A DNA stretch of 64,000 nucleotides from an uncultured Ruficoccus sp. (GCA_965140785.1 OZ223519.1:32001-96000), one strand, 5' to 3'; counted from the first letter of the stretch, positions 14,855 through 62,073 are shown. The notes: generated by a model from the letters alone, not told the origin. Numbers and translations: made by a program.

Positions 14855-14884
14855 TTCTGGCCGCCCTGCATCCTGCTTAAACAC

Positions 14885-14920
14885 AACGCGTAACGGTTAA
14901 ACCCGTTACGCGTTTTTTTT
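14885..14920 (+). terminator. Intrinsic terminator after GH31
   Basis: Perfect 12-bp stem AACGCGTAACGG / CCGTTACGCGTT, loop TTAAAC, ending in a T8 tract. Confidence 0.85.
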
Positions 14921-15009
14921 GTGCCCGGATTGTGCATGATAGGAGGGCAGATCGCCGTCGGCCCCACCGACGGAGGCACGATCCCCAACCCCAGCGAGCG
15001 ATTATTTAT

Positions 15010-16146: not shown

Positions 16147-16264
16147 CGTCTGCGAAGGTCGGCACCACGCACGTGGGGTGCCTTAACCCGGGCTTGCTGC
16201 GGCCTTCCGCCGCACGGTGCTGCTGCGTTGGGTGGGCGCTGGCGGGGTGAGCGGGTGGTCGTGG

Positions 16265-16277
16265 TTCAACTGTAAAA
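16265..16277 (+). promoter_or_regulatory. Operator-like box TTCAACTGTAAAA upstream of a putative amylase promoter
   Basis: Box, 11 nt, TTATCC, 16 nt, TAAAGT. Shares CGGGCTT at the same offset as the 10424 site. Confidence 0.62.
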
Positions 16278-16374
16278 CTCGAACGGGCTTATCCGGCTGC
16301 GCAGTTTTGCTAAAGTCAGCGTTGTCCGAGAACACGTGTTCTCTCTGCCCTTACCCCACCGAAAGGATACTCCC

Positions 16375-19272
16375 ATGAACCGCTTTGTCTCCCACGCTTG
16401 TCCGCTTCTGCCGGTTGTTTTCGTCATGTTGACGTTGGGCAGCCTTGTCTCGCACGCCGAATGGTATTTTCGGGGAACCCCGAACGGCTGGGACGCCGCG
16501 CCGATGACCCAGGTGGATGCGACCACTTACGAGATCGTTCAGAGCTTTGACGGCGAGGACACCAACGCCCGTTTCAAGATCGACCGCAGCGGTGACTGGG
16601 CCGAGAGCTACCCGGCGGCGGACCGCGTGGTCGATGACCACAAGACCTACCGCATCACGTTTGACACGGTGTCCAAGTCCATCACGACCGAGGAGATTCT
16701 GCCGCAGCAGACGTGGTACTTTCGCGGCACGCCCAACGCCTGGAATACGGCGGCCATGACCTACCTCGGCGCGAACCTGTACGAGTACATCGCCACCTTC
16801 GGTGGCGAGGAGAGCCCGGCGCGGTTCCTCATCGACCATACGGGGGACTTCTCCGAGCGCTATCCCGCGCAGGACTATCCGGTGGACGATTATAAAACGT
16901 ACCGCATCCTTTTTAACCAAGCGACCCAGGCGATCACGACGGAAGAGATCTGGTTGCCCGACACGTGGTATTTCCGCGGGACACCCAACGCCTGGAACAT
17001 GGCCGAGATGACGCGCCTGTCCACCAATACCTACGAGTATATCGCCACCTTCGATGGCGAGGAGAGCCCGTCGCGGTTCCTCATTGACCACACAGGCGAT
17101 TTCTCTGAGCGCTATCCTGCGCAGACGGATGTCAACGTGACCGATCAACGTATTTACCGGATCACCTTCAACAGCGACACGAAGGCGATCACGACGGAGG
17201 AGCTGGGAGTGATTGAGCCCTGGTATTTTCGCGGCACACCCAACGCCTGGAACACGGCGCAGATGACGCATCTGGGCAACGGTTATTACGAGTACATCGC
17301 CACGTTTGACGGCGAGGAGAGCCCGGCGCGGTTCCTCATCGATCGTTATGGCGATTTCTCTGAGCGATACCCGGCGCAGGACTATCCCGTTCAGGATCAC
17401 AAGACCTACCGCATCCTCTTCGATATCCTGACCAAGACGATCACCGTGAGCGAACTCGGCGTGAGCGGCGGGGATTTTCGGGAGGAGACGATCTATTTCG
17501 TGATGACGACGCGTTTCTACGACGGCGACCCCTCCAACAACATGAAGTGCTGGGACGGCGGCCTGAACCCCAGTACGGATCCGGCCTGGCGGGGAGATTT
17601 CAAGGGGCTGATCGAAAAGCTCGACTACATTAAGGCACTCGGTTTCTCGGCTATCTGGATCACCCCGGTGGTGAAAAACGCCAGCGGCTATGATTACCAC
17701 GGCTATCATGCCATCGACCACAGCAAGGTGGATTTCCGCTACGAATCCGCGGGCGTGAGCTACCAGACCCTGATCGATGAAGTGCATGCGCGGGGGATGA
17801 AGCTCGTTCAGGACATCGTACTCAACCACAGTTGCAACTATGGCGAGGAAAACCTCTACCCACTCTTCCAGCGTTCGGAGACGATCAACTTCAATGAAAC
17901 CGCCGACAGCGCCGTCACCATCGACGATCCGATGGGAGTGCTGCCGCTGGACTACGCGAGCCTGGCTCCGAATAACCAGTACGGTGCCCGCATTGACGCT
18001 ATGAAGGAGGACGCCAACGATGTGGACTTTATCTACCATCACGAGAAATCGCTTCAGTGGGAGGGCTACACGGTGCAGACCGGACAGATCGCCGGTGACA
18101 CGGTTGATCTTAATACGGAAAATCCCGTGACGGCGCAGTACCTGATCGACGCGTATAACCAGTACATTGATATGGGCGTGGACGCGTTTCGCATCGACAC
18201 GGTGAAGCATATCTCGCGGCTGACGTTCAACAACACGTTTGTCCCGGCCTTCAAACAGCGCGGGGGCGAGGACTTTTTCATGTTCGGCGAGATCGCAAGC
18301 CGTTACCGCCAGGTTTGGAACAGTAACATCCCTGCCATCTCCACCCCGTTCTATACCTGGGCCGAGACCGTGTCCTATCCGTGGGGTACACGCACGCTTA
18401 ACGAAGCTTCCGTCTACCAGCACTGGCAGGACAACTCGACGGTGGACAACGAGCCGATGAGCAACAATCACCGGCTCCTCGGCAACGACTATCACACGCC
18501 GGACTATTCGCTGAACTCGGGGATGGCGGTGATCGACTTTCCCATGCACTGGAACTTCCAGTACGCGGCCGATGCCTTCGGCGTCGCGGTGGGCGGGGAC
18601 CTGTGGTACAACGACGCCACGTTCAATGTGACCTACGTGGACTCGCACGATTACGCCCCGGATGGCGCGCCGGAGAACCAGCGCTTCGCGCAGCCTCAGG
18701 ACAGCTGGGCGGAGAACCTGAGCCTGATGTTCACGTTCCGTGGCATCCCGTGCATTTACTACGGCAGTGAGATCGAGTTCCAGAAAGGCATGCCGATCGA
18801 TGTCGGGCCGAATCAGCCGCTCTCGCAGACCGGGCGGGCATACTACGGAGATCATCTGCAGGGCAGCGTGTCCGTGAGTGATTTCGGCCAGTACAGTAGC
18901 GCCAGCGGCGAGATGGCCACTACCCTCAGCCATCCGCTGGCTCAGCATATCCGCCGCCTGAACCAGATCCGGCGTGCCGTGCCGGCCTTGCAAAAGGGGC
19001 AGTACTCGACCGACGGCATCAGCGGGGGAATCGCTTTTAAGCGCAGGTACACGGATGCCGAGACGGATAGCTTTGTTTTGGTGGCGATCAGCGGCGGAGC
19101 GACCTTTAGCGGCATCCCCAACGGAACTTATGTGGACGCCATTACCGGGGATGTGCAGAATGTCGTAGCGGGTAGCTTGTCGGCCTCTGTCAGTGGCAAG
19201 GGCAATATGAAAGTTTATGTGCTCAATGGCCCCGGAAAGATCGGCGAAGACGGGACTTACCTCAAGCCGTAA
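16375..19272 (+). CDS. Secreted GH13 alpha-amylase with four N-terminal tandem binding modules
   Basis: RBS GAAAGGA before ATG 16375; signal peptide; DFREETIYFVMTTRFYDGD, DIVLNH, DAFRIDTVKH, FGEI, YVDSHD. Resembles GH13_41-type amylases (tentative). Confidence 0.9.
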   Translation: MNRFVSHACPLLPVVFVMLTLGSLVSHAEWYFRGTPNGWDAAPMTQVDATTYEIVQSFDGEDTNARFKIDRSGDWAESYPAADRVVDDHKTYRITFDTVSKSITTEEILPQQTWYFRGTPNAWNTAAMTYLGANLYEYIATFGGEESPARFLIDHTGDFSERYPAQDYPVDDYKTYRILFNQATQAITTEEIWLPDTWYFRGTPNAWNMAEMTRLSTNTYEYIATFDGEESPSRFLIDHTGDFSERYPAQTDVNVTDQRIYRITFNSDTKAITTEELGVIEPWYFRGTPNAWNTAQMTHLGNGYYEYIATFDGEESPARFLIDRYGDFSERYPAQDYPVQDHKTYRILFDILTKTITVSELGVSGGDFREETIYFVMTTRFYDGDPSNNMKCWDGGLNPSTDPAWRGDFKGLIEKLDYIKALGFSAIWITPVVKNASGYDYHGYHAIDHSKVDFRYESAGVSYQTLIDEVHARGMKLVQDIVLNHSCNYGEENLYPLFQRSETINFNETADSAVTIDDPMGVLPLDYASLAPNNQYGARIDAMKEDANDVDFIYHHEKSLQWEGYTVQTGQIAGDTVDLNTENPVTAQYLIDAYNQYIDMGVDAFRIDTVKHISRLTFNNTFVPAFKQRGGEDFFMFGEIASRYRQVWNSNIPAISTPFYTWAETVSYPWGTRTLNEASVYQHWQDNSTVDNEPMSNNHRLLGNDYHTPDYSLNSGMAVIDFPMHWNFQYAADAFGVAVGGDLWYNDATFNVTYVDSHDYAPDGAPENQRFAQPQDSWAENLSLMFTFRGIPCIYYGSEIEFQKGMPIDVGPNQPLSQTGRAYYGDHLQGSVSVSDFGQYSSASGEMATTLSHPLAQHIRRLNQIRRAVPALQKGQYSTDGISGGIAFKRRYTDAETDSFVLVAISGGATFSGIPNGTYVDAITGDVQNVVAGSLSASVSGKGNMKVYVLNGPGKIGEDGTYLKP
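16462..17460 (+). repeat. Four tandem intragenic repeats (84-85 aa, WYFRGTPN(A/G)W modules)
   Basis: Units start at 16462, 16714, 16966 and 17221 (spacing 252/252/255 bp); units 2-4 are highly similar at DNA level. Confidence 0.92.
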
Positions 19273-46895: not shown

Positions 46896-48080
46896 TCAAG
46901 TGACTTGCTGAAAACTGTGTTTCTTCCGGTATTCTAGCGGAGACTGATCAAGAATGCGCCGGAAGATGCGCCCCATTCGGTCTTCGCTGGAAAATCCACT
47001 GGCTTCGGCGACGTCTCGGGCTCGCATGCCGGTTTGGGTAAGAAGCTTTTGCGCATGTTCAAGGCGCTTTAACGTGATTTCCTCCGCGATGGTGCGCCCG
47101 ATTTCCTGCTGGAATAGTTGATAAAGGTGACGGTAGGAAAGCGGAATCGTGGCCGAGACGGTCTTGGCATTAATGGGGCGGGTATAATTCTGCCAGATAT
47201 TGTGCAGGACGGCTGCGACCTGTGGGTGTTTCACGGCGAGGATGTCGGTGCTTAGACGGGTTGTAATTCCTGCCGGTGGAATCTTAAGCTCAGAGGATAC
47301 GACGCGTCCACCTTGCAGTAAGCGATCGAGGATAGCTGCTGCGCGGTAGCCTTCGGTTTCTTGATTGTTGTTGATGCTCGACAGAGGGACTGGAGCGAAT
47401 TCGCAACGTAGCGGGTCATCGTCCACACCGAGTACAGCGACTTGCTCTGGGACCGGGATGTTGTGGAGACGGCAGGCGTACAGTGCCTCAATGGAGACAT
47501 CGTCGTGCTCGGAAAAAACTGCTAAGGGACGGGGTAGGCCGCGTAACTGTTTGCCGAGCCACTCAATTCGCTTGGCTTCGTTGGTGTGGTTTTGCGGATG
47601 CGTTGCCAGCCAGTCGATGTCATAAAAGTTGGCTCCGGCCCTCTTAATATATTGCCTGAAGGTCCGGTGGCGGCGGATTGCCGAAGCAGTGTCTGATATG
47701 CGGTAAAACGCGGCATGGCGGAATCCCCGGTGAAGAAAGTAGTCGGCAGCCAAGCGGCCAATAGCCGCATCGTCGCAACGGACTGTAGGAATGCCGCGTA
47801 GGGTCACGTCTCCTATGTTGACGACTGGTTTTGCGCACTGGCGGACAAAGTCATGCAGTTCAGTGTCTTGGTGGAGCAGGCATATGATGCCGTCACTCTG
47901 CCATGACCTGGGAATACGGCCGTCGCGAGCCATGCGGGAATCTAGAATCCAATTCGCCTGCTTGGCGTAGCGGGCGATGCCTCGGTGGATAGCTGGTGAG
48001 TACCATCCCGGCGCAAGCATGATGTTGGGGCGATAAGCGCTATCTTGGTCTGACGATTTTTGGGGATGATTGGTTGGCAT
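46896..48080 (-). CDS. XylR-type regulator (periplasmic-binding fold plus AraC HTH)
   Basis: GIARYA, CDDAAIGRLAADYFLHRGF, VPEQVAVLGVDDD...PLSSI, C-terminal VAEASGFSS...SPLEYRK. Confidence 0.9.
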   Translation of the reverse strand: MPTNHPQKSSDQDSAYRPNIMLAPGWYSPAIHRGIARYAKQANWILDSRMARDGRIPRSWQSDGIICLLHQDTELHDFVRQCAKPVVNIGDVTLRGIPTVRCDDAAIGRLAADYFLHRGFRHAAFYRISDTASAIRRHRTFRQYIKRAGANFYDIDWLATHPQNHTNEAKRIEWLGKQLRGLPRPLAVFSEHDDVSIEALYACRLHNIPVPEQVAVLGVDDDPLRCEFAPVPLSSINNNQETEGYRAAAILDRLLQGGRVVSSELKIPPAGITTRLSTDILAVKHPQVAAVLHNIWQNYTRPINAKTVSATIPLSYRHLYQLFQQEIGRTIAEEITLKRLEHAQKLLTQTGMRARDVAEASGFSSEDRMGRIFRRILDQSPLEYRKKHSFQQVT

Positions 48081-48229
48081 TGAAAACAAAAATCTCCATT
48101 TTCGACGAAAACTAAACCTATTTTATGTCTTTATGCGAGATATTTGAGAGGATATGTAGGAAAGCGATGACATAAATAGATTTCGGTGCGGTTTCCGAAG
48201 CGCCTGTTTCTGCGTACTACCCAAAACCC

Positions 48230-49441
48230 ATGATGACATCATCAGAAAAACTCCGTGAACTTGTCTCCTCCCATGAGCGACTGCTTTCCCGCCCGAACGA
48301 GGTGGATGAGTCTTTTGACAACGGGATTTATCGGCGCTACAGACATTGCGTGCTGACCCGTGAGCATACGCCTGTTTATTGGAGGTATGACATCAATCCA
48401 GAGACGAATCCGCGCCTCTTGGAGCGTCTGGGGGTGAACGCCGTGATGAATGCCGGTGCGATCTATCACGCCGGAAAGTTTTATCTGATGGTGCGTGTGG
48501 AAGGAAACGACCGCAAAAGCTTTTTTGCGATCGCTGAAAGTCTGAATGGCATCGACAACTTCCGTTTCTGGGATAAGCCGTTGGTCGTGCCAGAGTTGCC
48601 GCGTGACGGTACGAATCTGTATGACATGCGCCTGGTCAAGCATGAGGATGGGTGGATTTACGGCGTGTTTTGCGTCGAGCGACGTCCTGACGATGCGCCT
48701 GCTTCAGACCAGTCCGTGGCCGAGGCACAATGCGGCATTGTCCGCACCCGTGATCTGATCAGCTGGGAACGCCTGCCGGATTTTCAGAGTCCCTCGCCGC
48801 AGCAGCGCAATGTCGTGCTTCATCCCGAGTTCGTGGATGGCAAATACGCTTGGTACACTCGGCCGCAAGACGGATTTATTGATGCGGGTTCCGGGGGGTG
48901 GTATCGGTTTCGCCCTGTCTGACTCGGTGAATCCTGCCATTTGCGGGGAAGAAAAAATCATTGATATGCGCGTTTACCACACGATCAAGGAGGTGAAGAA
49001 CGGCGCGGGTGCACCCCCGATCAAGACGGACCGAGGCTGGCTGCACATTGCCCACGGCGTGCGTGCTTGTGCGGCGGGCTTGCGTTACGTGCTCTACGTT
49101 TTTGTCACCGCGCTGGACGATCCGGCAAAAGTGATTGCCAAACCCGGGGCGGTTACTTCATCGCACCGCTGGGTGACGAACGCGTCGGCGACGTTTCAAA
49201 CGTGGTTTTCAGCAACGGGATCGCCGTTAAGGACGAGGATGTGTTCATCTACTATGCTTCGTGCGACACTCGGCTTCATGTTGCCACCAGTGACATTCCG
49301 ACCTTGCTTGATTATGCCTTTAACACGCCGCAGGATGCCGAGCGTACCCAAGCGTGCGTTAGCCAGCGTATCGATCTAATCGAGCGTAACCTCGGCTATG
49401 CCCGCGCGCATGGTTTGTCTGTCGGCCAGTGGGCGAATTAA
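48230..49441 (+). pseudogene. GH130 4-O-beta-D-mannosyl-D-glucose phosphorylase-like gene with two frameshifts
   Basis: Continuous homology across three ORF pieces ([24 protein letters not shown] / [25 protein letters not shown] / [22 protein letters not shown]); shifts at G runs 48893-48898 and 49146-49149. Confidence 0.85.
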
Positions 49442-49800: not shown

Positions 49801-49840
49801 ACAAAAAATCCCGCTCGGTGTGCGAAGCGGGATTTTTTGT
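49801..49840. terminator. Bidirectional intrinsic terminator
   Basis: ACAAAAAATCCCGCT...AGCGGGATTTTTTGT, a perfect 15-bp inverted repeat between convergent genes. Confidence 0.8.
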
Positions 49841-49969: not shown

Positions 49970-50896
49970 TTATGCAAAAATGGAATGCTGAGGCCTTGCT
50001 TCTCTGACTTGACAGGCCCGGGCACCACATTGCGTTGCGGTCTTCAGGGCAATTTTCAGGGGATGGCCCGTGCCCAGTGCCCAGACTAATCCACCATGGA
50101 AGGCATCACCGGCCCCGACCGTATCGACGACTTCGACGGGGATAGCCGGCTGATGAAGGAGCGCTCTTTCGCTCTCTATGGCCCAGGCGCCCTCGCTACC
50201 AGCGGTAACGACGACAGGGACTTGGTAATCGCGAAACATGGTTGAGGTTAATGCTTCCGCTGAAATCTCTCCGTAGATCGAGACGAGGGCATTTCTGTTT
50301 GGGATGAGGAGGTGCGCCAGCCCGAACAGGGCCCGAACCTCATCAAGAGATGCGCCGCATTGTTTTAAGGGATCGAGGTCAACATCAACGGCCACTCTAA
50401 CGCCATTTCTAGTTAAGCGCTGCACGGCTTCATGCAGGATCGGTAAAGGAATTTCCCCAATCTCTACAATCAACCAGTTCTCGGGCTGTACGAGGGACTC
50501 CCAGTGGGAGATGTCGTCGTCTCTGATGGTGGATAAACTGTTGGGAAGCAGCCATCCACCCACGCGCCGCCGTGCCTCCCCGGCGTAGGCGGCTAAGTTA
50601 AAAGGAGAGCAAGCACCTGAATCGTATCGCACACCCTCGGTACTGATGCCGGAGTCGGTGAGTTGCTGGATGATTTTTTGACCAATCCAATCTCGCCCCA
50701 GTTTTCCTAGCCAGCCGGCTCGGGCACCTAAGGCACTTATTTGAGCGAGGCAGTTGGCCACGGAGCCGCCCGGGCAGACGTTGACCTCCTGTGCCAGTAG
50801 CTTTTCCGTGTGGCCCACGCCCATCTCCGCCGTACGGATACGGAAGTCAATGGAGGCACTGCCCAGTCCCCAAAAACGGACATTGGATTTTTTCAT
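49970..50896 (-). CDS. PfkB-family carbohydrate kinase
   Basis: PGGSVAN...LG..AGWLGKLGRD..G; VVDTVGAGDAFHGG. Confidence 0.9.
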   Translation of the reverse strand: MKKSNVRFWGLGSASIDFRIRTAEMGVGHTEKLLAQEVNVCPGGSVANCLAQISALGARAGWLGKLGRDWIGQKIIQQLTDSGISTEGVRYDSGACSPFNLAAYAGEARRRVGGWLLPNSLSTIRDDDISHWESLVQPENWLIVEIGEIPLPILHEAVQRLTRNGVRVAVDVDLDPLKQCGASLDEVRALFGLAHLLIPNRNALVSIYGEISAEALTSTMFRDYQVPVVVTAGSEGAWAIESERALLHQPAIPVEVVDTVGAGDAFHGGLVWALGTGHPLKIALKTATQCGARACQVREARPQHSIFA

Positions 50897-50899
50897 GAA

Positions 50900-51598
50900 C
50901 TATTCGGCGATGCCTTCCATCTGTATGGCGTGGGAGAGGTAGCTGACATCCTCGTCTTTGACGTTCTTCCAGTTGCGGGCGAAGAGCATCTCGGCGCGGT
51001 CGCTCAGCGTATGGGTCATCATATCGCGCACCATCGGGTAACGCATGCCGACGGCATCGACACCGGCCCGCAGGGCGAGGTCCACGTCCGCGACGGATTT
51101 CATGCTTACGGCGATGATTTCAGGCGCTTTATCCAATTGGCTGTAGCCTTGCTTGATGGAGCGGAGTGTCTCAAAGGCATCCATCCCAATCGCCTGTGCG
51201 CGTGAGACAAACGGGCAGATTCCGAACGCGCCGACACTGGCCGCCACGCAGGCCTGGGACAGGCTGAACAGCGTTGTCGCGATGCAGTCGATACCTTCCT
51301 GCTGGAGAATGGCGATGGCCTTGAAGCCTTTTTCGTTGGCGATGATTTTAAAGCCAACCGTCGGGGCGACCTTGCGCAAATCGCGGGCGCGGCGGACGAT
51401 TTCTTCCTCGTCTTTACCGTGAATCTGGATAAAGACCGGCAAGTCGGTCAGTTCGACAATGGCCTCTGTGATTTCGTACAGGGTGAGTTCGCCCTTGTAG
51501 TACTGATCGAATCCCTGGGGATTGGTCAGGATACCCGCGACTCCGAGTTCGAGGCATTGGCGTATGTCTTCAAGCGATCCAGCTCCGTAGATTTTCAT
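50900..51598 (-). CDS. Small transaldolase / fructose-6-phosphate aldolase family protein
   Basis: GILTNP, Schiff-base Lys in GFKII, TTLFSLSQA, CPFVSR, IIAVSMKS; ATGA overlap with the upstream ADH. Confidence 0.85.
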   Translation of the reverse strand: MKIYGAGSLEDIRQCLELGVAGILTNPQGFDQYYKGELTLYEITEAIVELTDLPVFIQIHGKDEEEIVRRARDLRKVAPTVGFKIIANEKGFKAIAILQQEGIDCIATTLFSLSQACVAASVGAFGICPFVSRAQAIGMDAFETLRSIKQGYSQLDKAPEIIAVSMKSVADVDLALRAGVDAVGMRYPMVRDMMTHTLSDRAEMLFARNWKNVKDEDVSYLSHAIQMEGIAE

Positions 51599-52680
51599 GC
51601 GTATGTACTCCAGGATTGAGTGATAAGGGTTCTGAGGTCTTCCAAAGTGATTTCGACGTTGGCGTTGTGGCGTCCATAGGAAGCGTAGCCGAGGGCGGCC
51701 CATTCCTCGATCTTGGCCTCGTCGATGGCTGGAAGAGTGGGGATGGGCACATGTTCGCGTATGTAGTCGCTCATGCGGTCTTCAAAGGCGGCGCTGATAT
51801 GTTTTGCCCTCGGGCAACCTTTGGCCGCCAGCACCTCGACCAATGCGGCGAGAAAAATAGCGTTGGCGAGGCCGTGGGCGTAGCCGTATTCGCGCGTCAG
51901 CGCGTAGCCTAGCGCGTGCGCCATGACGGTCCCGCAATGCGCCAGAACAATGCCTCCGCCGAGGGCGGTTTCCATCATTTGGCTACGGGCTTCGATGCTG
52001 TTGGACTCCGCGAGCACATCGGGTAAGGCGGCAATGCCCTTGTCGAGCGATGTCCGGGCGATGTCAGCAAGGATGCTGACGCAGGAGCGCGTCAGGTAGC
52101 CCTCTATCAGGTGGGACAGCGCATCGATTCCGCTGTGAGCAGTCACGTGTGCTGGAAGTGAGAGCGTGAGTTCCGGATCGCAGAGCGCGACGCTGGGGAC
52201 CAGCCGGTCGTGCTTGAGGATGCGCTTGAAATTTCCCTCGTCGGTGATGATGGAGTAGGGCGAGACTTCGCTGCCAGCTCCCGAGGTGGTCGGTACGGCT
52301 ACGATAGCGATGTCGGGAGCTACTCCCGGAGCATTTTCCCCCGTCAGTTTCCAGGCAGGATTTTTGGCGAACCAGGCGGCGGCTTTTGCGAGGTCGATAG
52401 CGCTGCCGCCTCCGACCGCGATGATGGTTTCGATCTCGTTGTCGGCTGCCATTATTCCGAGTTGTCGAGCCATCTTTTCTCCGGGATTTTCTTCGTAAAG
52501 ATTGGGAACGAGCAGGGTTGCGCAGTGCTCTTGCAACTGCTGTTGGACGGCGTCCATCTGGCAGCGGCGAAAGCGCAGGAGCATGCAACGCTTGCCATTG
52601 GTTTCTGGAAGGCTGGCGAGCTTATTAAAATTACCAGGTCCGAAAAGAATGCGTGTAGTCAGTTGGAATTCAAAATTCAT
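51595..52680 (-). CDS. Iron-containing alcohol dehydrogenase
   Basis: IAVGGGSAIDLAK, VPTTSGAGSEVS, DPELT, DALSHLIE, AHALG, HGLANA. Confidence 0.92.
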   Translation of the reverse strand: MNFEFQLTTRILFGPGNFNKLASLPETNGKRCMLLRFRRCQMDAVQQQLQEHCATLLVPNLYEENPGEKMARQLGIMAADNEIETIIAVGGGSAIDLAKAAAWFAKNPAWKLTGENAPGVAPDIAIVAVPTTSGAGSEVSPYSIITDEGNFKRILKHDRLVPSVALCDPELTLSLPAHVTAHSGIDALSHLIEGYLTRSCVSILADIARTSLDKGIAALPDVLAESNSIEARSQMMETALGGGIVLAHCGTVMAHALGYALTREYGYAHGLANAIFLAALVEVLAAKGCPRAKHISAAFEDRMSDYIREHVPIPTLPAIDEAKIEEWAALGYASYGRHNANVEITLEDLRTLITQSWSTYA

Positions 52681-52768
52681 AGTTGGAAGGCAAACTTGGT
52701 AAAAGGTGATGGCGTAACTGATGCTGAACAGCATCTTGATCTTGCATTTCTTCGCAATGCTCCCATAG

Positions 52769-52783
52769 CTTTCCCTATCAAGT
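52769..52783 (-). promoter_or_regulatory. Operator box ACTTGATAGGGAAAG upstream of the ADH-aldolase-kinase operon
   Basis: Identical to 54942-54956; followed on the minus strand by 11 nt, TTGCGA, 16 nt, GATGCT. Confidence 0.78.
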
Positions 52784-52804
52784 GTTCACGCCTTTAAATT
52801 ACCA

Positions 52805-53869
52805 ATGGAGAGAAAGCCCCGCATTACGATTAAGCAGATGGCAGCCCAGTTGGGGGTGTCGCATACAACGGTTTCGCTGGCGCTACGTGAGCACCCATCC
52901 ATTCCTCCGACGACGCGAGACCGGATCAAAGAGCATGCCCAGAAAGTCGGTTATCGTCCCGACCCTATGCTGGCTTCGCTCGTGGCCTACCGGCAGCGTA
53001 ATCGCTCTGAGCAGTCGTTTAAAGGGGCACTGGCCTGGCTGACGAATTATCCGACGCACGATGGCTGGCGCAAAGTTGGGCCGGTTGGATACTTTACTGG
53101 CGCAATGCGCCGTGCCGACGAACTTGGCTATCGTCTCGACGAAATATGGCTTAACGAGCCAGGGATGGATGCCAAGCGGATGCGTCAGGTCTTGATCGCG
53201 CGTAATATTCGTGGATTGCTATTTCCACCGCAACCGGTGCCGGGTACGAAAATTGCGCTGAACATCGACGGATTTGCGGCTGTGAAATTCGGCTACACGC
53301 TGGCCAGCTATCAGTTGCCCGTGGTGATGAATCATCAGTTCCGTAACATGATGTTCCTGATCGAGCAACTGACGAGGATCGGCTATAGCCGTATCGGATT
53401 GGCGATGCCAGTGATCAACGACGAGCGTGTCCACCACAACTATGCGGGTGGTTTCTGGGCAGGTACACATTTCTCGGGACTGGTAGAACGCTCATCGCGA
53501 TTCCTGCCCAAGAGCATGGACAACACGGCCTTCTGGCGCTGGTTCGACAAGCATCGTCCCGATGTTATTATCGGAGAGGCAGGTTATGCAGGGACCATGC
53601 TTGAATACCTGCGTGAAGGTGGGGTGGACGTTCCCCGCGAGGTCGGAGTCGCGGTTGTCAACATTCCGTACGGCAATACCTACTTTGGGGGCATTGATGA
53701 AAACCACGAGTTGATCGGTGCCTCCGCAGTCAATCTAGTGGCGGGAATGCTTCACAATAATGAGACTGGAGAAAGCACCAATCCCCGTCATGTGCTCATC
53801 GACGGGAGTTGGCGCTTGGGAAAGAGTCTGCGGGAAGTAAAACCGGCTCAGGCCAGCGCGGGCTCCTGA
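52805..53869 (+). CDS. LacI-family transcriptional regulator
   Basis: ITIKQMAAQLGVSHTTVSLALREHPSI...GYRPDPML; C-terminal VLIDGSW. Confidence 0.93.
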   Translation: MERKPRITIKQMAAQLGVSHTTVSLALREHPSIPPTTRDRIKEHAQKVGYRPDPMLASLVAYRQRNRSEQSFKGALAWLTNYPTHDGWRKVGPVGYFTGAMRRADELGYRLDEIWLNEPGMDAKRMRQVLIARNIRGLLFPPQPVPGTKIALNIDGFAAVKFGYTLASYQLPVVMNHQFRNMMFLIEQLTRIGYSRIGLAMPVINDERVHHNYAGGFWAGTHFSGLVERSSRFLPKSMDNTAFWRWFDKHRPDVIIGEAGYAGTMLEYLREGGVDVPREVGVAVVNIPYGNTYFGGIDENHELIGASAVNLVAGMLHNNETGESTNPRHVLIDGSWRLGKSLREVKPAQASAGS

Positions 53870-54876
53870 ACCGCCTGCCACAGTGGCTGATGGTTGGTAC
53901 TGCGTTCGGCACAATATCCGGTGGGTGGAATCAGTTCCGGATAGTGTTCCTCCGCATAATCACGAATACGCTGGATAAGGTTCGTCGGGACGGGAATCGC
54001 TGGATTGCGAACGGGGCCGACCTTCAGGAATCCGAGCGCATCGATAACGGCTTTGTGGCGGGCCAGCGGGCTATATTGAGTGATTGCTTCGAGTTCTGGA
54101 GGGAAGATATGAGGTTGCCCTTGGCCGAGTTTGAGTCGCGAGGGAAATTCCGTAAAGCTGCACTGAGCCTGCTCTGCTTCGACGTATTTACCCTGAGCGC
54201 ACAGGTCGAGGATTTCACGCATCTTATGAGGCATCCATGGCATGTGTACGCTGCCGACTCCGATGGCCCCGTTACGATGGAGTTCGGTTAGCCAGCCAAT
54301 GTCGGTAGAGCTCATATGGAGCAAAGGACTTTTTTCGTGCAGGCTCTTCCATTTCTTGAAATCCCAGTGTGCTTCCTTGCTGCCGATGACATTGGGCAGT
54401 TCGGCCAGGCGCTTGAACATCTCCAGCGAGTAGGGCTGACGTACCCATCCGTAATGATAAATCAGCAAGCTGATATCTGGGCAGGCTTCGGAAACTCGCT
54501 TCCAGAACTGAAAAAGCTCATCATCAGTCAAGGGAGTGTGGTAGGGAGCGATTACCAAAATAGCATCCACACCTGCGGCCATGGCCAGCCGTCCACGAGC
54601 GATGATTTCAGTTTCGGAAAGTGAAACTGCCCCCATCAAACTGATGGCTCCAGCTTGCTGCGTCTCTTCGCTCATAATCTCGGCGATGCGGCGTAGTTCC
54701 GCTTCGCTCATTGTGTAGAATTCTCCAGATGTACCAGCCATAGAGATACCTTCAGCTCCTGCGTTGAGGAGCTTACGGATGTTCCATCGGACGGCTTCTT
54801 CGTCAAGCTCAAGGCTCGGGGTAAACGGAGTTGGCGGATAGGCGATGACGCCACGGTAATTCTTTTTGCTCAGCAT
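53848..54876 (-). CDS. DapA/N-acetylneuraminate lyase-family class I aldolase
   Basis: GVIAYPPTPF, AGTSGEF (GxxGE), GVDAILVIAP, IYHY, GSKEAH (Schiff-base Lys). Confidence 0.88.
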   Translation of the reverse strand: MLSKKNYRGVIAYPPTPFTPSLELDEEAVRWNIRKLLNAGAEGISMAGTSGEFYTMSEAELRRIAEIMSEETQQAGAISLMGAVSLSETEIIARGRLAMAAGVDAILVIAPYHTPLTDDELFQFWKRVSEACPDISLLIYHYGWVRQPYSLEMFKRLAELPNVIGSKEAHWDFKKWKSLHEKSPLLHMSSTDIGWLTELHRNGAIGVGSVHMPWMPHKMREILDLCAQGKYVEAEQAQCSFTEFPSRLKLGQGQPHIFPPELEAITQYSPLARHKAVIDALGFLKVGPVRNPAIPVPTNLIQRIRDYAEEHYPELIPPTGYCAERSTNHQPLWQAVQEPALA

Positions 54877-54925
54877 GATTGGGTGGTTTTCATCGCCGGG
54901 AGCGGCAATCGCAAGTTTGGCGGAG

Positions 54926-54956
54926 CTTTCCCTATCAAACAACTTGATAGGGAAAG
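54926..54956. promoter_or_regulatory. Back-to-back operator boxes CTTTCCCTATCAA-acaac-TTGATAGGGAAAG
   Basis: Perfect 13-bp inverted repeat between the divergent aldolase and EamA genes. Confidence 0.82.
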
Positions 54957-55068
54957 TGTATGCTCAGTCGCCTGCAGAGTCTATGTGGGGCACCCTTCAG
55001 GCATTTTGCCTCGGAAGCGTTCTGCTCGGTGAACACGGCGTAGCCAAGGCACATGGAAACCCATTCAG

Positions 55069-55971
55069 ATGAAATACGATGCTCATGCTGTTCGCGTTGC
55101 GATCGCGCTCTCCATTACCTGTTTTTTCTGCGGAACAGATTTTATTGTGACGAAACTGCTCATGGCTACATTGCCGCCGTTTTTGTATGCGGGTATGCGA
55201 TGGATGATCTGTGGGCTACTGGTGTTTGTTTACCTGTATAGGCGCGGGGTGCCGTTACCAACTGCCCGTCAGGCCCGTAATGCGCTGCTGGTTGCAGTTT
55301 TCCTGATTGTCGGGGGCAACGGTATACGCGTGCTGGGGCAGACGATGGCGGCGGCGGGTATCACCTCGGTCGTTATGGCGACTGGGCCCATTTTGCTGAT
55401 GCTGTTGGCTATTTTGTGTAAGATGGAGCGGCTTCCGCATTGGCGGATTTGGTTGTACATGATCGGCGGTGTCGCGGGCATTATTCTGATTATTCTTCCA
55501 CGCGCCGAGCAGGGAAGTTCGAATACCTCACTGGCGGGTGTGCTGGTTGTGCTCGCTGCCTGCCTTTGTTGGGCGGTTGGGGCACTGCTATCGCGCCATG
55601 CCTCTTCGCACCCCAACCGTATGATGGCAGCATCCCTGCACATGCTGTTAGCTTCGCCGGTACTTTTGCTGATATCATGGCTGTCGGGTGAATGGAAGGC
55701 GTTTGATTTCTACCTGCTGCCATGGACGACCTATGCCTGGTTTGCCTACATGGTGATTTCTTTATCCAGCTACACAAGCCTCGTGTGGCTGCTAGGGCAT
55801 ACGAGTGCGGAGGTGGCGACCTCCTATGCCTATGTCAGTCCGGTGATTGCACTGGCCTTGTCGTGTTTATTTCTGGGCGAACGCCTGACGCTGCCGGGAT
55901 TCGCCGGTTGTATTCTCGTACTGACCATGGTGAGTTTGCTCATGCGCAGCAAATTTCGCAGGCAGGCTTAA
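55069..55971 (+). CDS. EamA/DMT-family transporter (YedA-like)
   Basis: About 10 TM segments; LPPFLYAGMR, ATSYAYVSPVIA...FLGERLT. Confidence 0.88.
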   Translation: MKYDAHAVRVAIALSITCFFCGTDFIVTKLLMATLPPFLYAGMRWMICGLLVFVYLYRRGVPLPTARQARNALLVAVFLIVGGNGIRVLGQTMAAAGITSVVMATGPILLMLLAILCKMERLPHWRIWLYMIGGVAGIILIILPRAEQGSSNTSLAGVLVVLAACLCWAVGALLSRHASSHPNRMMAASLHMLLASPVLLLISWLSGEWKAFDFYLLPWTTYAWFAYMVISLSSYTSLVWLLGHTSAEVATSYAYVSPVIALALSCLFLGERLTLPGFAGCILVLTMVSLLMRSKFRRQA

Positions 55972-55990
55972 GTTAGTCTGTCCTGATGCG

Positions 55991-56005
55991 ACTTGATAGT
56001 GAAAG
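55991..56005 (+). promoter_or_regulatory. Operator box ACTTGATAGTGAAAG upstream of the sialidase-like gene
   Basis: One mismatch to the other boxes; followed by 11 nt, TTGTCC, 16 nt, TATCTT. Confidence 0.78.
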
Positions 56006-56089
56006 TGCGAAGGGAGTTGTCCTGGTAAGAGAATCGTTTATCTTAGGTATCGTTTATAACCCCTTTGTCGCCTTTTTACCCGTATTCAA

Positions 56090-57364
56090 ATGCCCCCGGA
56101 ACTTGCCCCAGATTACACCATCGTTGTCGAATCTCCAGATCCGAAAGACATTTACTGCTACAGTCCAGGTCTGTGCCGGTGCCCGGATGGAACATTGATC
56201 GCGACGATGGATTTTGGGGGAGCAGGGGCGATCCGGCTCGACGGTCCGAAATCGAGCCGGGGCGACGCCCAATCCGTCGGTAACCAGGGCCGTGTTTACC
56301 GGTCGGAGGACGCCGGCGCGACTTGGCATCTGAAAATTAAATTCCCCTTCTATCACTCGAGGCCGTTTTATGCGGGGAAAACGCTTTACGCGCTTGGCCA
56401 TTCGGGAGACTTGATGATTATCCGGTCGGATGACGATGGCCGCACATGGTCTGAGCCCGTTAAACTGACCAAGGACGAAATCTGGGGGCAGGCTCCGTGC
56501 AATGTCCACACCGCCAATGGATGCGTTTACCTGACGATGGAGAAGCAACTGCGCTCTGACGCAGGTTCCTGGCGCAGTAATGGGTACGGGCCGATTCTTA
56601 TGCGAGCCTGCATCGGTGATGACTTGACGAATCCTGATGCCTGGACTTACGCAAAGAGTTTTTCTGCCCGGGACATTTGCCCGGATCAGGAAGTGCCTTG
56701 GATGGGGATTCCCTTTTTCAGGTTTATAGAAGGGCTGGAGGGAGAGTTGACGCCCGGACGGCGTCCCTGGCCGCTTGGCTGGATCGAGAGTCATGTCGTC
56801 CAGATTGTCGATCCAGACCACTATTGGTATGACTCGAAGGGGAAGACTTTTCATTTGTTGGCACGCGCCACGACTTCGACAACGGGGTTGGCAGGGCTGC
56901 TGAAGGTAATCGAGCATGACGACGGTTCGATGACGACGCATCTGGAGCAGGCTCCTTCCGGGGTGGATATGCTCTACCTGCCCTTACCAGGAGGCCAGAT
57001 GAAGTTTCACATTCTTTACGATGAAGTTTCACGTTTGTATTGGCTTTTAAGTACACAGGCGACCGACAGTATGACCCGTGCCGATCGTTTGCCGGATGAG
57101 CGCTTCAATACGCCCAACGACGAGCGCCAACGCCTGCAACTGCACTATTCAAAAAACTGCGTGGATTGGTGTTTTGCCGGAATTGTTACCAGTGGTGCTT
57201 CTCCGAAACAGGCCAGGCATTATGCTAGCATGGCCATCGACGGCGAGGATCTGCTCGTGCTGAGCCGTTCCGGGGACGCGCAGGCCAAATCCGCCCATAA
57301 TGGGAACCTAATTACTTTTCACCGAGTACGTAATTTTCGCAGCCTTGCCGATCTTGCAGGCTGA
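56090..57364 (+). CDS. BNR/Asp-box beta-propeller, sialidase (GH33)-like, no signal peptide
   Basis: Asp-boxes YRSEDAGATW and IRSDDDGRTWS; C-terminal HYASM. Confidence 0.75.
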   Translation: MPPELAPDYTIVVESPDPKDIYCYSPGLCRCPDGTLIATMDFGGAGAIRLDGPKSSRGDAQSVGNQGRVYRSEDAGATWHLKIKFPFYHSRPFYAGKTLYALGHSGDLMIIRSDDDGRTWSEPVKLTKDEIWGQAPCNVHTANGCVYLTMEKQLRSDAGSWRSNGYGPILMRACIGDDLTNPDAWTYAKSFSARDICPDQEVPWMGIPFFRFIEGLEGELTPGRRPWPLGWIESHVVQIVDPDHYWYDSKGKTFHLLARATTSTTGLAGLLKVIEHDDGSMTTHLEQAPSGVDMLYLPLPGGQMKFHILYDEVSRLYWLLSTQATDSMTRADRLPDERFNTPNDERQRLQLHYSKNCVDWCFAGIVTSGASPKQARHYASMAIDGEDLLVLSRSGDAQAKSAHNGNLITFHRVRNFRSLADLAG

Positions 57365-57442: not shown

Positions 57443-58357
57443 ATGAAAACGAATGTATCCATACTCACGAATCTCATCGGCAAGCGTTCCTTCGCTCCTG
57501 CATGTTTGCTGATCGCAGCAGTTACGCCCGCTCTAGCGGACAGTTATTCCGACGCAATCATGGCAGATAATCCTCTGATTTATTACCGCTATCAGGATAC
57601 CGGTAGCACTGTGACCGACCTTGGCTCTGGAGATGTGGACGGTACGGTGTTCTCTGGTGCTACACAGGGGGTCTCCGCTGGGCCTGTCGCTCCCTTGTAT
57701 CCAGGATTTCAGAGTGACAACAAAGGCATCACCTTTAACGGGAGCAGCAGTAGTTACGTTTCTGTCGATACTGTTTCGCTAGGTAACGCCGGGCTTGAAG
57801 GGGCTTCGGCAGTCACGGTTGAATTCTGGCTCAATCCTACCAGCTACAGTACTGGAGTAATTCTCGATATTCCATTAGGGAAGGCGGGGTTCGGTGATGT
57901 TACTGGTATTGGAGTGAATATCTCAACTGATGGAAATGTTCGGTTGAGTGGACGTAGCAATGGCAATGATAGTTTCCAGCAGTATACTTTTTCCGACACA
58001 GGGATTGGGCTTAATGAGTGGAGTCAGGTTACTGCTATTTTTGACTACACTAACGATACGGTCTCGCTCTATGTCAACGGGCTTTCTATCGGAGTTTCGG
58101 GTACATTGGCATGGGGATCGTCAACACTTGATGGAGTGGATATTGCCACTACGGATACACGACAGGGAATATCCCGGGCGGGTATTAATCCTTTTGAAGG
58201 TGCTCTGGATGAATTATCCATTTATAACTATGGACTAAGCTCCACGGAAATTGCCGATCACTATGCAGCCGCCATCCCTGAGTCATCTTCGATGAGCCTC
58301 TTGATGGGAAGCGTAGTACTATTGGCGCTTCTGTTTCATCGAGTCCGCCGCGTTTGA
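57443..58357 (+). CDS. PEP-CTERM protein with LamG/ConA-like domain
   Basis: Signal peptide; TVEFWLNP, NEWSQVTAIFD...LYVNG, FEGALDELSIYNYGLS; IPESSSMSLLMGSVVLLALLFHRVRRV. Confidence 0.88.
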   Translation: MKTNVSILTNLIGKRSFAPACLLIAAVTPALADSYSDAIMADNPLIYYRYQDTGSTVTDLGSGDVDGTVFSGATQGVSAGPVAPLYPGFQSDNKGITFNGSSSSYVSVDTVSLGNAGLEGASAVTVEFWLNPTSYSTGVILDIPLGKAGFGDVTGIGVNISTDGNVRLSGRSNGNDSFQQYTFSDTGIGLNEWSQVTAIFDYTNDTVSLYVNGLSIGVSGTLAWGSSTLDGVDIATTDTRQGISRAGINPFEGALDELSIYNYGLSSTEIADHYAAAIPESSSMSLLMGSVVLLALLFHRVRRV

Positions 58358-60935: not shown

Positions 60936-62073
60936 TCAGGCAGCTATAGGCTCCTCCTTTCCGTTTTCGGGTTGGGCCTCTCGATAATAGTAGTTCAGCA
61001 AGCCTCCCAGCCGTTCACTTTTACGAATAGCTGAGTATTTATCGGGTTTGGTGGGCGAGTAGGGGAAAGGGATCAGATTGTCCAAGCCCTGGTGATTGCG
61101 TTCGTGGTGATAGTGCTCGACGTAGTTTTCGACGGCCTTTCGCAGTGATTTTTCACCGAGAAAAATGAAGTGGTCGAGACATTCGGTTTGCATGGATTTG
61201 ACGAAACGCTCGGCGTAACCATTTTGCTGAGGCGTGCCGATGCGGGTCTGGATGACCTCCGTGCCTGAGTCTTTGAGTGTCTTGCGGAATGCCTGGGTGT
61301 AGAGCGGGTCATGATCGCAGATAAAATATTTCATGCCATTGAGAAAGCCGTCCTCGGCGTCGGTGAGATTGCGGGCGACCTGTTCCATCACGCGACCATC
61401 GGTTTGGCAGCCAATGTGGGCGATGTGAACCTGGCGTTTGGCCAGCGACATGGCGAAAAACACGTGAAAGCGAACCAGTCTGCGCAGGGTCCAGACCTCG
61501 ACATTGAGAAAATCGGCAACGGCTATCACATCCATGTGGGAGCGCACGAAGGTTTTCCAGTTGGATTGCTTTGCGCGTTCAGGAGCGGGGAGGATGCCTG
61601 CGGAGCGAAGGATGTTGCCCACCGTTGTATCGCTGACGATATGTCCAAGGTTTTCCAATGTTCCTTGGATTCTGCCGTAACCCCAGTCGGGGTTCTCTTC
61701 GGCAAGCTTGACACAGGGTTCTCGAATGATCGCCATTTCCTTTTGACGCTCAGTTTGAGCATGCCGCTTCGCCGTGTATTTGGCGGCAATGAACCTGCGG
61801 TGCCAAGCCCATCAGCGTGCTTGGAGTTACGAGGTTTGCATACTCCTGAAGCGTCGCCCAGCCCAGCTTCTTACCTTTCTTCGCCAAGCTTCGTCGTTGA
61901 GCGTTAGTCAGGTCCAGCTTCTTGCCAGTGGCGTCGAACTGCTGCTTGAGGATGCGGTTCTCCTCAAGCAGATAATCAATGACTTGCTGCTGTTTTCGGT
62001 TCATCCAGCCTGCGATGGCCGAGAGCAAAATGATGGTCTGCGTCTTCAAAGAAAGATTTTTACAAACCTGCAA
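60936..62073 (-). mobile_element. Integrase-core (rve/DDE, IS481-like) transposase, frameshifted
   Basis: IDYLLEENRILK, VTPSTLM/WHRR, ENPDWGYGRIQG, ADFL, ICDHD, NGYAERFV, HHERNHQGLDN, RLGGLLNYY; one extra G in ATGGGCT (CCC at 61808-61810 on +). Terminal IRs not identified. Confidence 0.82.

Follow-up and report, generated by a model that had tools for sequence, protein, structure and literature searches.

A unique two-part promoter signal links four transcription units and a putative acidic-sugar enzyme module in an uncultured Ruficoccus

We analyzed a 64,000-nt stretch of DNA (the window; all positions are counted over its whole length) from an uncultured Ruficoccus sp., whose own genome assembly, G000, comprises 4,361,983 bases and is 90.85% complete. 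The locus of interest consists of enzyme, transporter, and secreted-protein genes arranged around a LacI-family regulator and preceded by copies of a short shared sequence, the box. On the minus strand, the first unit encodes an iron-type alcohol dehydrogenase/aldehyde reductase (Fe-ADH; 51595..52734, Pfam PF00465 and PF25137), an enzyme with the fold of transaldolase and fructose-6-phosphate aldolase (FSA) (TAL_FSA, PF00923; 50900..51598), and a PfkB-family sugar kinase (49970..50896, PF00294, 133 bits). For the second gene, called FSA-like below, we chose M36 of a long open reading frame (ORF) as the start, at position 51598; the ATG there shares bases with the stop codon of the Fe-ADH gene (ATGA). 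A terminator-like hairpin with a T-run after the PfkB stop (49810..49826, minus strand), found by a consensus scan only, likely marks the end of this operon. The regulator (52805..53869, plus strand) has the LacI/GalR architecture, a LacI-type helix-turn-helix (HTH) domain (PF00356, 33.6 bits with a cut-off of 27) followed by a periplasmic-binding-protein-like effector domain (Peripla_BP_3, PF13377), the latter scoring 24.6 bits, slightly below its 26.5-bit cut-off. It is followed by a class I lyase of the DHDPS/NAL family with a C-terminal extension of about 50 aa (53848..54876, minus strand; PF00701, 114.9 bits; start set at M23 of a long ORF), an EamA/DMT-family transporter (55069..55971, plus strand; PF00892), a BNR/Asp-box sialidase-fold protein (56090..57364, plus strand; recognized by Pfam and an AlphaFold 2 model), and a secreted LamG/concanavalin-like protein (57443..58357, plus strand; PF13385), whose gene likely shares a transcript with the BNR gene. 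The Pfam matches bear out the identities given to the PfkB, TAL_FSA, Fe-ADH, LacI, DHDPS, EamA, and BNR/Asp-box genes in a first-pass annotation made from the sequence.

The box, TTGATAG(G/T)GAAAG, occurs four times in the window as exact 13-mers (TTGATAGKGAAAG), with 0.00 copies expected from 100 shuffles, and each copy is oriented toward the unit downstream of it. Box 1 (TTGATAGGGAAAG; 52769-52781, minus strand) faces the Fe-ADH operon, 34 nt before the ATG at 52734, and lies antisense to the LacI gene, 23 nt before the LacI ATG. Box 2 (TTGATAGGGAAAG; 54926-54938, minus strand) faces the DHDPS gene, 49 nt before the ATG at 54876, and box 3 (TTGATAGGGAAAG; 54944-54956, plus strand) faces the EamA gene, 112 nt before the ATG at 55069; the two form a perfect inverted repeat of 13+5+13 nt. 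Box 4 (TTGATAGTGAAAG; 55993-56005, plus strand) faces the BNR gene, 84 nt before the ATG at 56090. The first-pass annotation had reported four copies, one before each unit; the count and the placement stand, but three of its ranges, given as 15 nt, are 2 nt too wide for a motif of 13 nt.

The exact box is found nowhere else in the 4.36-Mb assembly. It had been reasoned earlier that a box common across the genome would speak against a single element tying the four units together; all four exact copies in G000 lie in the locus, and their uniqueness and clustering speak for such an element. Sites with up to two mismatches were also enriched within the window (7 versus 1.69 expected), but genome-wide the one-mismatch sites numbered only 7 more, compared with 8 for a reversed control, and the degenerate matches are thus noise. 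The observations support one locus-specific cis-element linking the four units. Three conventional readings of the box were tried and rejected. When the TTGATA at its start was taken as a sigma-70 −35 hexamer, no passing −35/−10 pair overlapped any box, and a sigma-70 scan of the box region returned 4 matches versus 5.7 expected; a sigma-54 reading of TGG...TTGC in the Fe-ADH leader had a spacing 3 nt short, as judged by eye on the sequence, and the motif is missing at the other sites; and no Rfam family indicative of an RNA element was found at the boxes.

Each box is accompanied, 11 nt downstream, by a second element. This reads TTGCGA after box 1 (52752..52757, minus strand) and after box 2 (54909..54914, minus strand), TCGCCT after box 3 (54968..54973, plus strand), and TTGTCC after box 4 (56017..56022, plus strand), the orthologous promoter in another genome, G008, having TTGTCG in the last case. 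The promoters of Fe-ADH/FSA-like/PfkB, DHDPS, EamA, and BNR plus LamG hence carry a two-part directional signal, TTKATAGKGAAAG followed by 11 nt and T(T/C)G(C/T)(C/G), and in G000 this pattern matches the four window sites only.

The signal is retained in G008, which belongs to another genus of the same family and is 95% complete. There, contig C38 (locus L027) carries orthologs of the DHDPS gene (61% identical) and of the LamG gene (44% identical) in divergent orientation, and the spacer between them holds two copies of TTTATAGGGAAAG, each pointing at its own gene and keeping 12 of the 13 box letters. Both copies share one G-to-T change relative to the window box, a pattern that could reflect either gene conversion of one arm by the other or co-evolution with a binder resident in G008. 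In an ungapped alignment of the six sites, four from the window and two from G008, all sites agree in 11 of the 13 box columns and also in a T and a G located exactly 12 and 14 nt past the box (6/6 sites); the second elements are TTGCGA, TTGCGA, TTGCGG, TCGCCT, TTGTCC, and TTGTCG. Beyond these blocks, identity between the promoters of the DHDPS orthologs is about 45%, as counted on the same alignment. Between the plus-strand box copy and the LamG gene of G008 (L027, 3028-3114) we found a remnant of the BNR gene, 29 residues of the N-terminus that are 59% identical to residues 8-36 of the window protein. The location of the remnant indicates an ancestral order of box, BNR, and LamG that is intact in the window, and G008 has evidently lost the propeller gene by deletion while the promoter was kept.

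A closer variant of the locus is present in a marine metagenome run (X3), in contigs about 95% identical in coding sequence. The variant has nine substitutions in the 70-nt spacer between Fe-ADH and LacI and none in the box, the flanking positions 52768 and 52784 being among those that differ; this alone is weak, as the estimated chance of nine misses with 13 of 70 positions is about 16%. The 32 nt holding boxes 2 and 3 are kept with two differences, and both flanks fall below 80% identity. The X3 variant and the conservation in G008, the latter being the stronger evidence, support the view that the box and its second element are under selection.

We then considered the distribution of the box in other genomes. 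The exact box was found in 48 of the 401 genomes of the order and in none of the 15 other genomes of the family. Clustered copies were seen in none of the other 400 genomes of the order, the listed copies each being alone on their contig; 13 of these 400 have two or more copies, the listed places all on different contigs. A relaxed form of the box was found in 3 of 16 family genomes (five sites in G000, three in G008, and one in G001), with 0-1 in controls, and the extra single sites in G000:C39 and G001 were rejected as regulon members, as they had no second element or fell inside an ORF. Genome G127 contains five exact copies of TTGATAGGGAAAG, one each on the small contigs C91, C97, C131, C145, and C174, four of them at most 400 nt from a contig end, which could be a dispersed repeat with no connection to the regulon.

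The locus is probably a small locus-specific regulon: four promoters share one directional element that is unique in the genome and kept across genera. Most likely, a dedicated transcription factor would dock at the box, which stands at a fixed distance from a weak −35-like hexamer (TTGnCn), and the site would serve as a positive-control or promoter-defining site rather than as a classical LacI palindrome. The first-pass annotation had instead assumed LacI 52805 to be the binder. On that account the box is the operator of the regulator, which would repress the four units and its own gene until a sugar or pathway intermediate binds. The arrangement has features in common with classical LacI/GalR systems, in that the LacI gene sits amid the four units and is divergent from possible targets, box 1 lies just before its ATG, and the perfect inverted repeat in the DHDPS/EamA spacer could be straddled by a dimer. 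The HTH domain is also intact, and local catabolic genes are usually under local regulators. LacI-family proteins bind two-fold symmetric sites, however, and the shared box is not such a site: single copies are not palindromic, and boxes 1 and 4, two of the four sites, have no inverted partner. The orientation of the copies tracks gene direction, such that the divergent DHDPS/EamA pair needs two copies and not one symmetric site; the second element at its fixed distance gives every site a direction; and the gap within the inverted pair varies, being 5 nt in G000 versus 33 nt in G008.

The comparison with G008 bears on the same question. The best match to LacI 52805 in that genome is 41–42% identical, which is the level of the G000 paralogs, and the regulator at the G008 locus is an unrelated GntR/periplasmic-binding-protein (PBP) hybrid (E = 0.98); a distant LacI paralog lies 24 kb off, next to a GH130-like gene. 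Because G008 keeps the box with no detectable ortholog of LacI 52805, this protein becomes a weaker candidate for reading it. The family is large, with at least 33 scored paralogs in G000 and similar numbers in relatives, and the best match to LacI 52805 among 60 relatives is 41–42% identical, the best non-self identity within G000 being 41%. Other LacI paralogs in G000 do adjoin CG-centered palindromes of 14–16 bp (GAGTTTACGTAAACTC, TTTCATACGTATGAAA, and TTTATGCGCATAAA), unlike the box. Such palindromes are found, for example, at C26:177403-177418, C10:582619-582634, and C39:41250-41263, some being repeated within their locus; the search for repeated k-mers at the other paralogs was noisy and gave few clear palindromes. 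LacI 52805 is therefore one candidate binder, a possible one with the odds clearly against it. A more conventional candidate for its operator is a perfect 7+2+7 palindrome over the annotated Fe-ADH start (GATGCTGAACAGCATC; 52720..52735, no strand assigned), which occurs once in the genome, is unchanged in the X3 variant, and was also flagged by the terminator scan; LacI may act there.

The persistence of the signal in G008 without a LacI ortholog is also compatible with the box and the T(T/C)G being the −35 and −10 elements of an alternative sigma factor, of the extracytoplasmic function (ECF) type and encoded elsewhere. G000 and G008 have 13 and 12 sigma-70-family genes, respectively, the signal is two-part and directional with a fixed spacing in all six sites, and sigma-70-like pairs are missing over the boxes. 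The gap from GAAAG to the second element is nevertheless 11–14 nt and thus below the 16–17 nt usual for ECF promoters, the second element is weakly conserved beyond T.G, and no sigma-factor gene lies in the contig region of the window or on G008:C38. We consider a sigma factor an unlikely reader and prefer a dedicated transcription factor.

The enzymes of the locus recur in other lineages. Scanning the FSA-like protein against one genome per species identified three loci, and metagenomes added two short ones. The first of these, L028, comes from a metagenome-assembled genome of Victivallales and is one co-directional run including BNR (50% identical), Fe-ADH (52%), FSA-like (77%), DHDPS, and PfkB (60%) genes. 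The run is preceded, before the BNR gene, by GntR/FCD and DUF1559 genes and a gene for an 807-aa secreted protein of unknown function, and after PfkB (12386-17569) come an acylating acetaldehyde dehydrogenase, a 4-hydroxy-2-oxovalerate aldolase, a glycyl-radical enzyme of the PFL2/dehydratase type (728 bits with that model, above the cut-off), and an activase. In L029, from Victivallis, Fe-ADH, BNR, and FSA-like genes are followed by the start of an L028-type DHDPS gene at the contig end; L030 has FSA-like and PfkB genes with a sulfatase near; L032 has Fe-ADH and FSA-like genes; and the contig of L031 is short. Counted over the six FSA-like loci, Fe-ADH is adjacent in four, PfkB in three, and BNR in three, and two of the loci without an adjacent PfkB end at or just past the FSA-like gene. 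Wherever the contig extends, the FSA-like gene adjoins PfkB or Fe-ADH.

Sialidase-fold genes are paired with DHDPS-family genes in 6 of 11 loci (the window, L027, L028, L029, G000:C10, and L022), and this pairing is the strongest argument for a logic in which an ulosonic acid is released and then cleaved. Sulfatase genes adjoin the pairs of L027 and G000:C10 as well as the FSA-like and PfkB genes of L030. The combined evidence supports the enzymes forming a real module that recurs in distant lineages. The pair on G000:C10 belongs to a distantly related cluster (464000-482000, L077) with LacI, GH4, and sulfatase genes followed by a DHDPS-family gene (325 aa) that adjoins a paralog of the sialidase-fold protein (477 aa, sharing 27% identity with the one in the window); the cluster also encodes a GntR/PBP regulator and proteins of the Sortilin/BNR and LamG types.

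Homologs of the BNR protein are numerous, at least 2134 among the 7999 candidates scored, and are called "sialidase family protein" only; the ESM Atlas likewise gives only "exo-alpha-sialidase" cluster names. They are 55–60% identical across Planctomycetota, Verrucomicrobiota, Chloroflexota, Poribacteria, and Paenibacillus. The AlphaFold 2 model (predicted local distance difference test score, pLDDT, 90.5; predicted template-modeling score, pTM, 0.91) is a six-bladed beta-propeller of the sialidase type. Glycoside hydrolase family GH33 ranks first both in Foldseek and in a Foldseek-independent aligner, with Z scores of 29–31 and a root-mean-square deviation of 2.8–3.5 Å over 300–321 residues at 15–18% identity, followed by Z scores of 27.6 for KDNase, 24.8 for GH93, and 18.8 for the GH143 DHA-ase BT_1020. 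The protein has one Asp-box, at residues 112-121 (Pfam BNR, E = 9.4e-5, 22.3 bits, below the 27-bit cut-off), and in sequence and profile searches the matches to solved sialidases align the Asp-boxes only. All 34 of the 34 family members compared keep Y378, E233, E275, R259, R346, R376, R393, D74, and D248, the invariant residues including six Arg and several Asp in total; the nucleophile Tyr with its partner Glu, the acid/base Asp, and the second and third Arg of GH33 may be among them. A carboxylate-clamping Arg triad is possible. No match to BNR_2 or to any NCBIfam family was found for the protein, and its close paralogs reach 26–30 bits with a BNR_2 cut-off of 31.4. We therefore place the protein in a separate family of sialidase-fold enzymes. 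It has no hydrophobic N-terminal stretch and is for that reason probably cytoplasmic, where it would act on an imported small glycoside. Its paralogs in relatives adjoin SSF transporters, DUF3748 and FG-GAP proteins, GH29 fucosidases, a SASA-type esterase, and sulfatases.

The DHDPS-type lyase belongs to the DHDPS/NAL superfamily, as its GTSGE motif (GxxGE) and the Lys in IGSKEA align with two family members; we take these to be the carboxylate motif and the Schiff-base Lys. Among NCBIfam models it scored 90.8 bits with dapA, 84.3 with a KdgD-type model, and 72.2 with NanA, all under the cut-offs, and it is far from NanA in particular (72.2 versus 281 bits and 54.4 versus 382 bits). The DHDPS partners of the sialidase-fold proteins fall into at least three clades that are 26–27% identical to each other. 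The best NCBIfam match of the PfkB kinase is ribokinase, at 94.7 bits versus a cut-off of 299.65, and its ortholog in L028 is 59.5% identical; the Fe-ADH reached no NCBIfam cut-off, and the EamA transporter scored 141 bits with a YedA-like model, under the cut-off of 270. No close characterized or solved relatives were found for the kinase and the Fe-ADH, and no solved close relatives for the module enzymes in general. Every protein of the module missed the NCBIfam equivalog cut-offs, in agreement with the earlier idea that they do not map to a characterized pathway.

The Tal/FSA-fold enzyme has the fold and length of the TalC/FSA/MipB family and differs from both of its known subfamilies in the active site. 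In an alignment with solved type 3B transaldolases, its K84 falls on Lys 86 of the Thermoplasma enzyme chain and corresponds to the Schiff-base Lys of FSA and TalC (residue roles here are those of the FSA and transaldolase literature); the neighboring T108 is also kept. Gln58 stands in place of the catalytic Glu of transaldolase, as in FSA, and Phe130 in place of the catalytic Tyr of FSA (Tyr131 in Escherichia coli), as in transaldolase. Neither the FSA combination of Tyr and N-terminal Asp nor the type 3B transaldolase combination of Glu and Asp is thus present, Gly5 occupying the position of the Asp, and K84, Q58, F130, T108, and G5 do not vary among the subfamily members (30 of 30). The protein scored 118.5 bits with the NCBIfam model fsa_talC_mipB, versus a cut-off of 245.95, and its orthologs in L028–L032 are 61–77% identical. 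The subfamily contains at least 180 clusters at E ≤ 1e-20, the named sources being Clostridiales, Spirochaetales, Sedimentisphaeraceae, and Victivallales. On its residues, the enzyme represents a distinct subfamily, neither a canonical FSA nor a canonical transaldolase, and it is set apart from the known family also by adjoining PfkB or Fe-ADH genes.

We read the locus as a whole as a regulon and enzyme module for an acidic sugar, and we put the probability of this reading at roughly 0.55. A plausible substrate, judging from the genes present, is an ulosonic-type sugar from sulfated glycans, although both the substrate and the order of reactions are conjecture. The propeller enzyme would hydrolyze an imported glycoside of an acidic 2-keto-3-deoxy sugar, derived from sulfated marine glycans, and the DHDPS-type enzyme would then cleave or dehydrate the free acid. 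PfkB would phosphorylate what is left of the sugar, the Tal/FSA-fold enzyme would split the product, and Fe-ADH would reduce the small aldehyde or ketone that remains; the DMT transporter would take part in this genome only. The anaerobic Victivallales carrier would convert the resulting diol into an acyl-CoA by means of its glycyl-radical dehydratase and acylating aldehyde dehydrogenase, and the presence of these two enzymes in L028 fits an end product that is a diol of two or three carbons. Kdo, Dha, and KDN occur in lipopolysaccharide, pectin, and microalgal surface glycans, and sugars of these types from algal or bacterial glycans are candidates, none of them favored. The fullest form of the proposal, an undescribed ulosonic route with a new and very large cytoplasmic sialidase-fold family, a remodeled Tal/FSA enzyme, a diol end product fermented by anaerobes, and, in the Opitutales-type host, activation through a box read by a factor other than LacI, is tentative and in our estimate considerably less likely to hold in all its parts.

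Several observations count against the acidic-sugar reading. Some of them concern the enzymes. Between the window and L028, the DHDPS proteins share only 26% identity, such that the seemingly conserved DHDPS step rests on non-orthologous family members; the window type was not found in G721–G723, and it scores about equally with KdgD-type dehydratases and NanA. The FSA-like enzyme has Gly5 in place of the Asp (Asp6) used by both known subfamilies, and may possibly be no aldolase at all. The second cleavage assigned to it earlier is accordingly downgraded to conjecture, as the catalytic Asp, Glu, and Tyr are replaced by Gly, Gln, and Phe. In the sialidase-fold family, the only Arg resembling that of the sialidase RIP motif (R30-C-P, matched to the RIP position by sequence order, which is our inference) is found in 24 of 34 members; the L028 ortholog has Lys instead, and members from Paenibacillus have Val, Ala, or Asn, and the first Arg of the triad is therefore not strictly conserved. 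Other points concern the distribution. Five of the 11 sialidase-fold loci (L021 and L023–L026) have no DHDPS, kinase, or FSA-like gene nearby and carry SSF transporters, DUF3748 and FG-GAP proteins, and fucosidases. The module is also rare: the FSA-like ortholog is found in 1 of 401 sampled genomes of the phylum, this being G000 itself, and in 1 of 151 sampled genomes of the order of L028, while four genomes of the same genus have BNR matches of at most 53% identity or none. The co-conservation expected by the first-pass annotation holds for the module enzymes, which recur in distant lineages, but not for EamA and LacI, which lie outside the module elsewhere, EamA not being found in the related loci.

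The diol-processing genes of L028 and the neighborhoods of the sialidase-fold paralogs are also what one might expect if the module degraded the acid of a 6-deoxyhexose, 2-keto-3-deoxy-fuconate or -rhamnonate, to pyruvate and lactaldehyde by means of the DHDPS-type aldolase, with Fe-ADH as a lactaldehyde reductase making propanediol. The paralogs adjoin GH29 fucosidases and a rhamnose mutarotase, the Fe-ADH matches lactaldehyde reductase models at 120–126 bits, far under the cut-offs, and the glycyl-radical enzyme, activase, and acylating aldehyde dehydrogenase of L028 correspond to the needs of an anaerobe for using a diol. A sugar dehydrogenase, a lactonase, and an acid-sugar dehydratase are missing from all of the loci, and such a route would not need the kinase, the Tal/FSA-fold enzyme, or the sialidase-fold protein. 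It is less complete than the route from an ulosonic-type sugar and appears improbable to us.

A sulfosugar had been suggested as a further alternative. Following the logic of the sulfo-Embden–Meyerhof–Parnas (sulfo-EMP) pathway, which combines a kinase, an aldolase, a reductase, and an exporter, PfkB would phosphorylate the sulfosugar, the Tal/FSA-fold enzyme would split it, Fe-ADH would reduce sulfolactaldehyde, and EamA would export the product. The locus resembles such operons and the related sulfo-transaldolase (sulfo-TAL) ones in that a kinase of the PfkB type, an aldolase or transaldolase of class I, an aldehyde reductase, and an exporter are grouped in one regulon. Fe-ADH matches a sulfoacetaldehyde reductase model at 96 bits, and the glycyl-radical enzyme of L028 matches sulfopropanediol dehydratase models at 511–513 bits, but these sulfo-specific matches fall far short of the cut-offs (700 and 1000 bits) and the glycyl-radical enzyme scores higher with other members of its family. 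The FSA-like enzyme is no closer to sulfofructose than to ordinary transaldolases, scoring 56 bits with the solved sulfofructose transaldolase versus 85 with ordinary ones. No GH31-type sulfoquinovosidase, isomerase, or mutarotase was found among the 14 proteins scanned at the window locus and the 32 of L028–L030, and no sulfofructose-specific kinase or transaldolase was recognized. The sialidase-fold and DHDPS-type proteins are unused in the sulfo-pathways and would have no role, and no paper combining "sialidase-like" and "sulfoquinovose" was found in a full-text search. The suggestion thus gained no support, and we regard it as very unlikely.

The route from an ulosonic-type sugar is closest in outline to the nan loci for sialic acid, which combine NanH of family GH33, NanA, and a local repressor. 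Shared features are the pairing of a sialidase-fold protein with a DHDPS/NAL lyase, seen in six loci, the presence of a transporter, and local transcriptional control. The differences are substantial, however: the propeller is 15–18% identical to GH33 with the RIP-type Arg not conserved, the lyase misses the NanA cut-offs, and a PfkB kinase, a Tal/FSA-fold enzyme, and Fe-ADH are present in addition. The NanE, ROK (NanK), NagA, and NagB families had no match among the 14 proteins scanned at 46.9–61.7 kb, and NanE (PF04131) was not found anywhere in the G000 assembly, given its completeness of 90.85%. The earlier observation that nanE, nanK, nagA, and nagB are missing is confirmed for the scanned proteins, and with it the conclusion that the locus does not follow the canonical N-acetylneuraminic acid (Neu5Ac) route.

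Full-text literature searches, read at the level of the matches listed, returned no described catabolic route for such ulosonic acids beyond sialic acid and nothing on this gene set. The names of four enzymes combined, as well as DUF3748, led to unrelated papers; GH33 with Verrucomicrobiota, sulfatase, and Kdo led to surveys only; FSA with glycolaldehyde and arabinose 5-phosphate gave none; and "Kdo catabolism" was absent among the matches listed for the aldolase, hydrolase, or catabolism of Kdo. Catabolic regulons assembled from known superfamilies are familiar, whereas the combination, two of the enzyme subfamilies, and the promoter signal appear to be undescribed. If the acidic-sugar reading is true, a function would be gained both for the sialidase-fold family of at least 2134 members and for the transaldolase-fold subfamily, whose clusters number at least 180 and come mostly from anaerobic glycan degraders, and the marine carbon cycle would gain a further route. 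The signal is also a test case for regulation, being unique, direction-locked, and two-part, and present in one genome with an adjacent LacI gene and in a second genome with no LacI ortholog.

The locus was likely acquired horizontally. The module is sporadic and absent from the relatives searched, the GC content of the locus is lower than that of the genome (55% versus 59%), and an IS481-type transposase lies in the vicinity. The transposase gene (IS481/IS3 type with rve domains; 60936-61736, minus strand) is 3.5 kb past the BNR/LamG unit. On the other side of the locus, two overlapping plus-strand ORFs (48230-48922 and 48810-49379) match separate parts of GH130-type beta-mannoside phosphorylase models, and the region 48230-49379 has the appearance of a single gene broken by a frameshift. 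The divergent gene next to it (46896-48089, minus strand) codes for a hybrid regulator that combines a periplasmic-binding-protein domain with an AraC HTH, and a GH130-like gene beside a LacI paralog is also found on G008:C38. Farther away in the window, at about 16730-17400 (G000:C48:48730-49400), 13-mers repeat every 252–255 nt in k-mer listings, which suggests a gene with tandem repeated domains.

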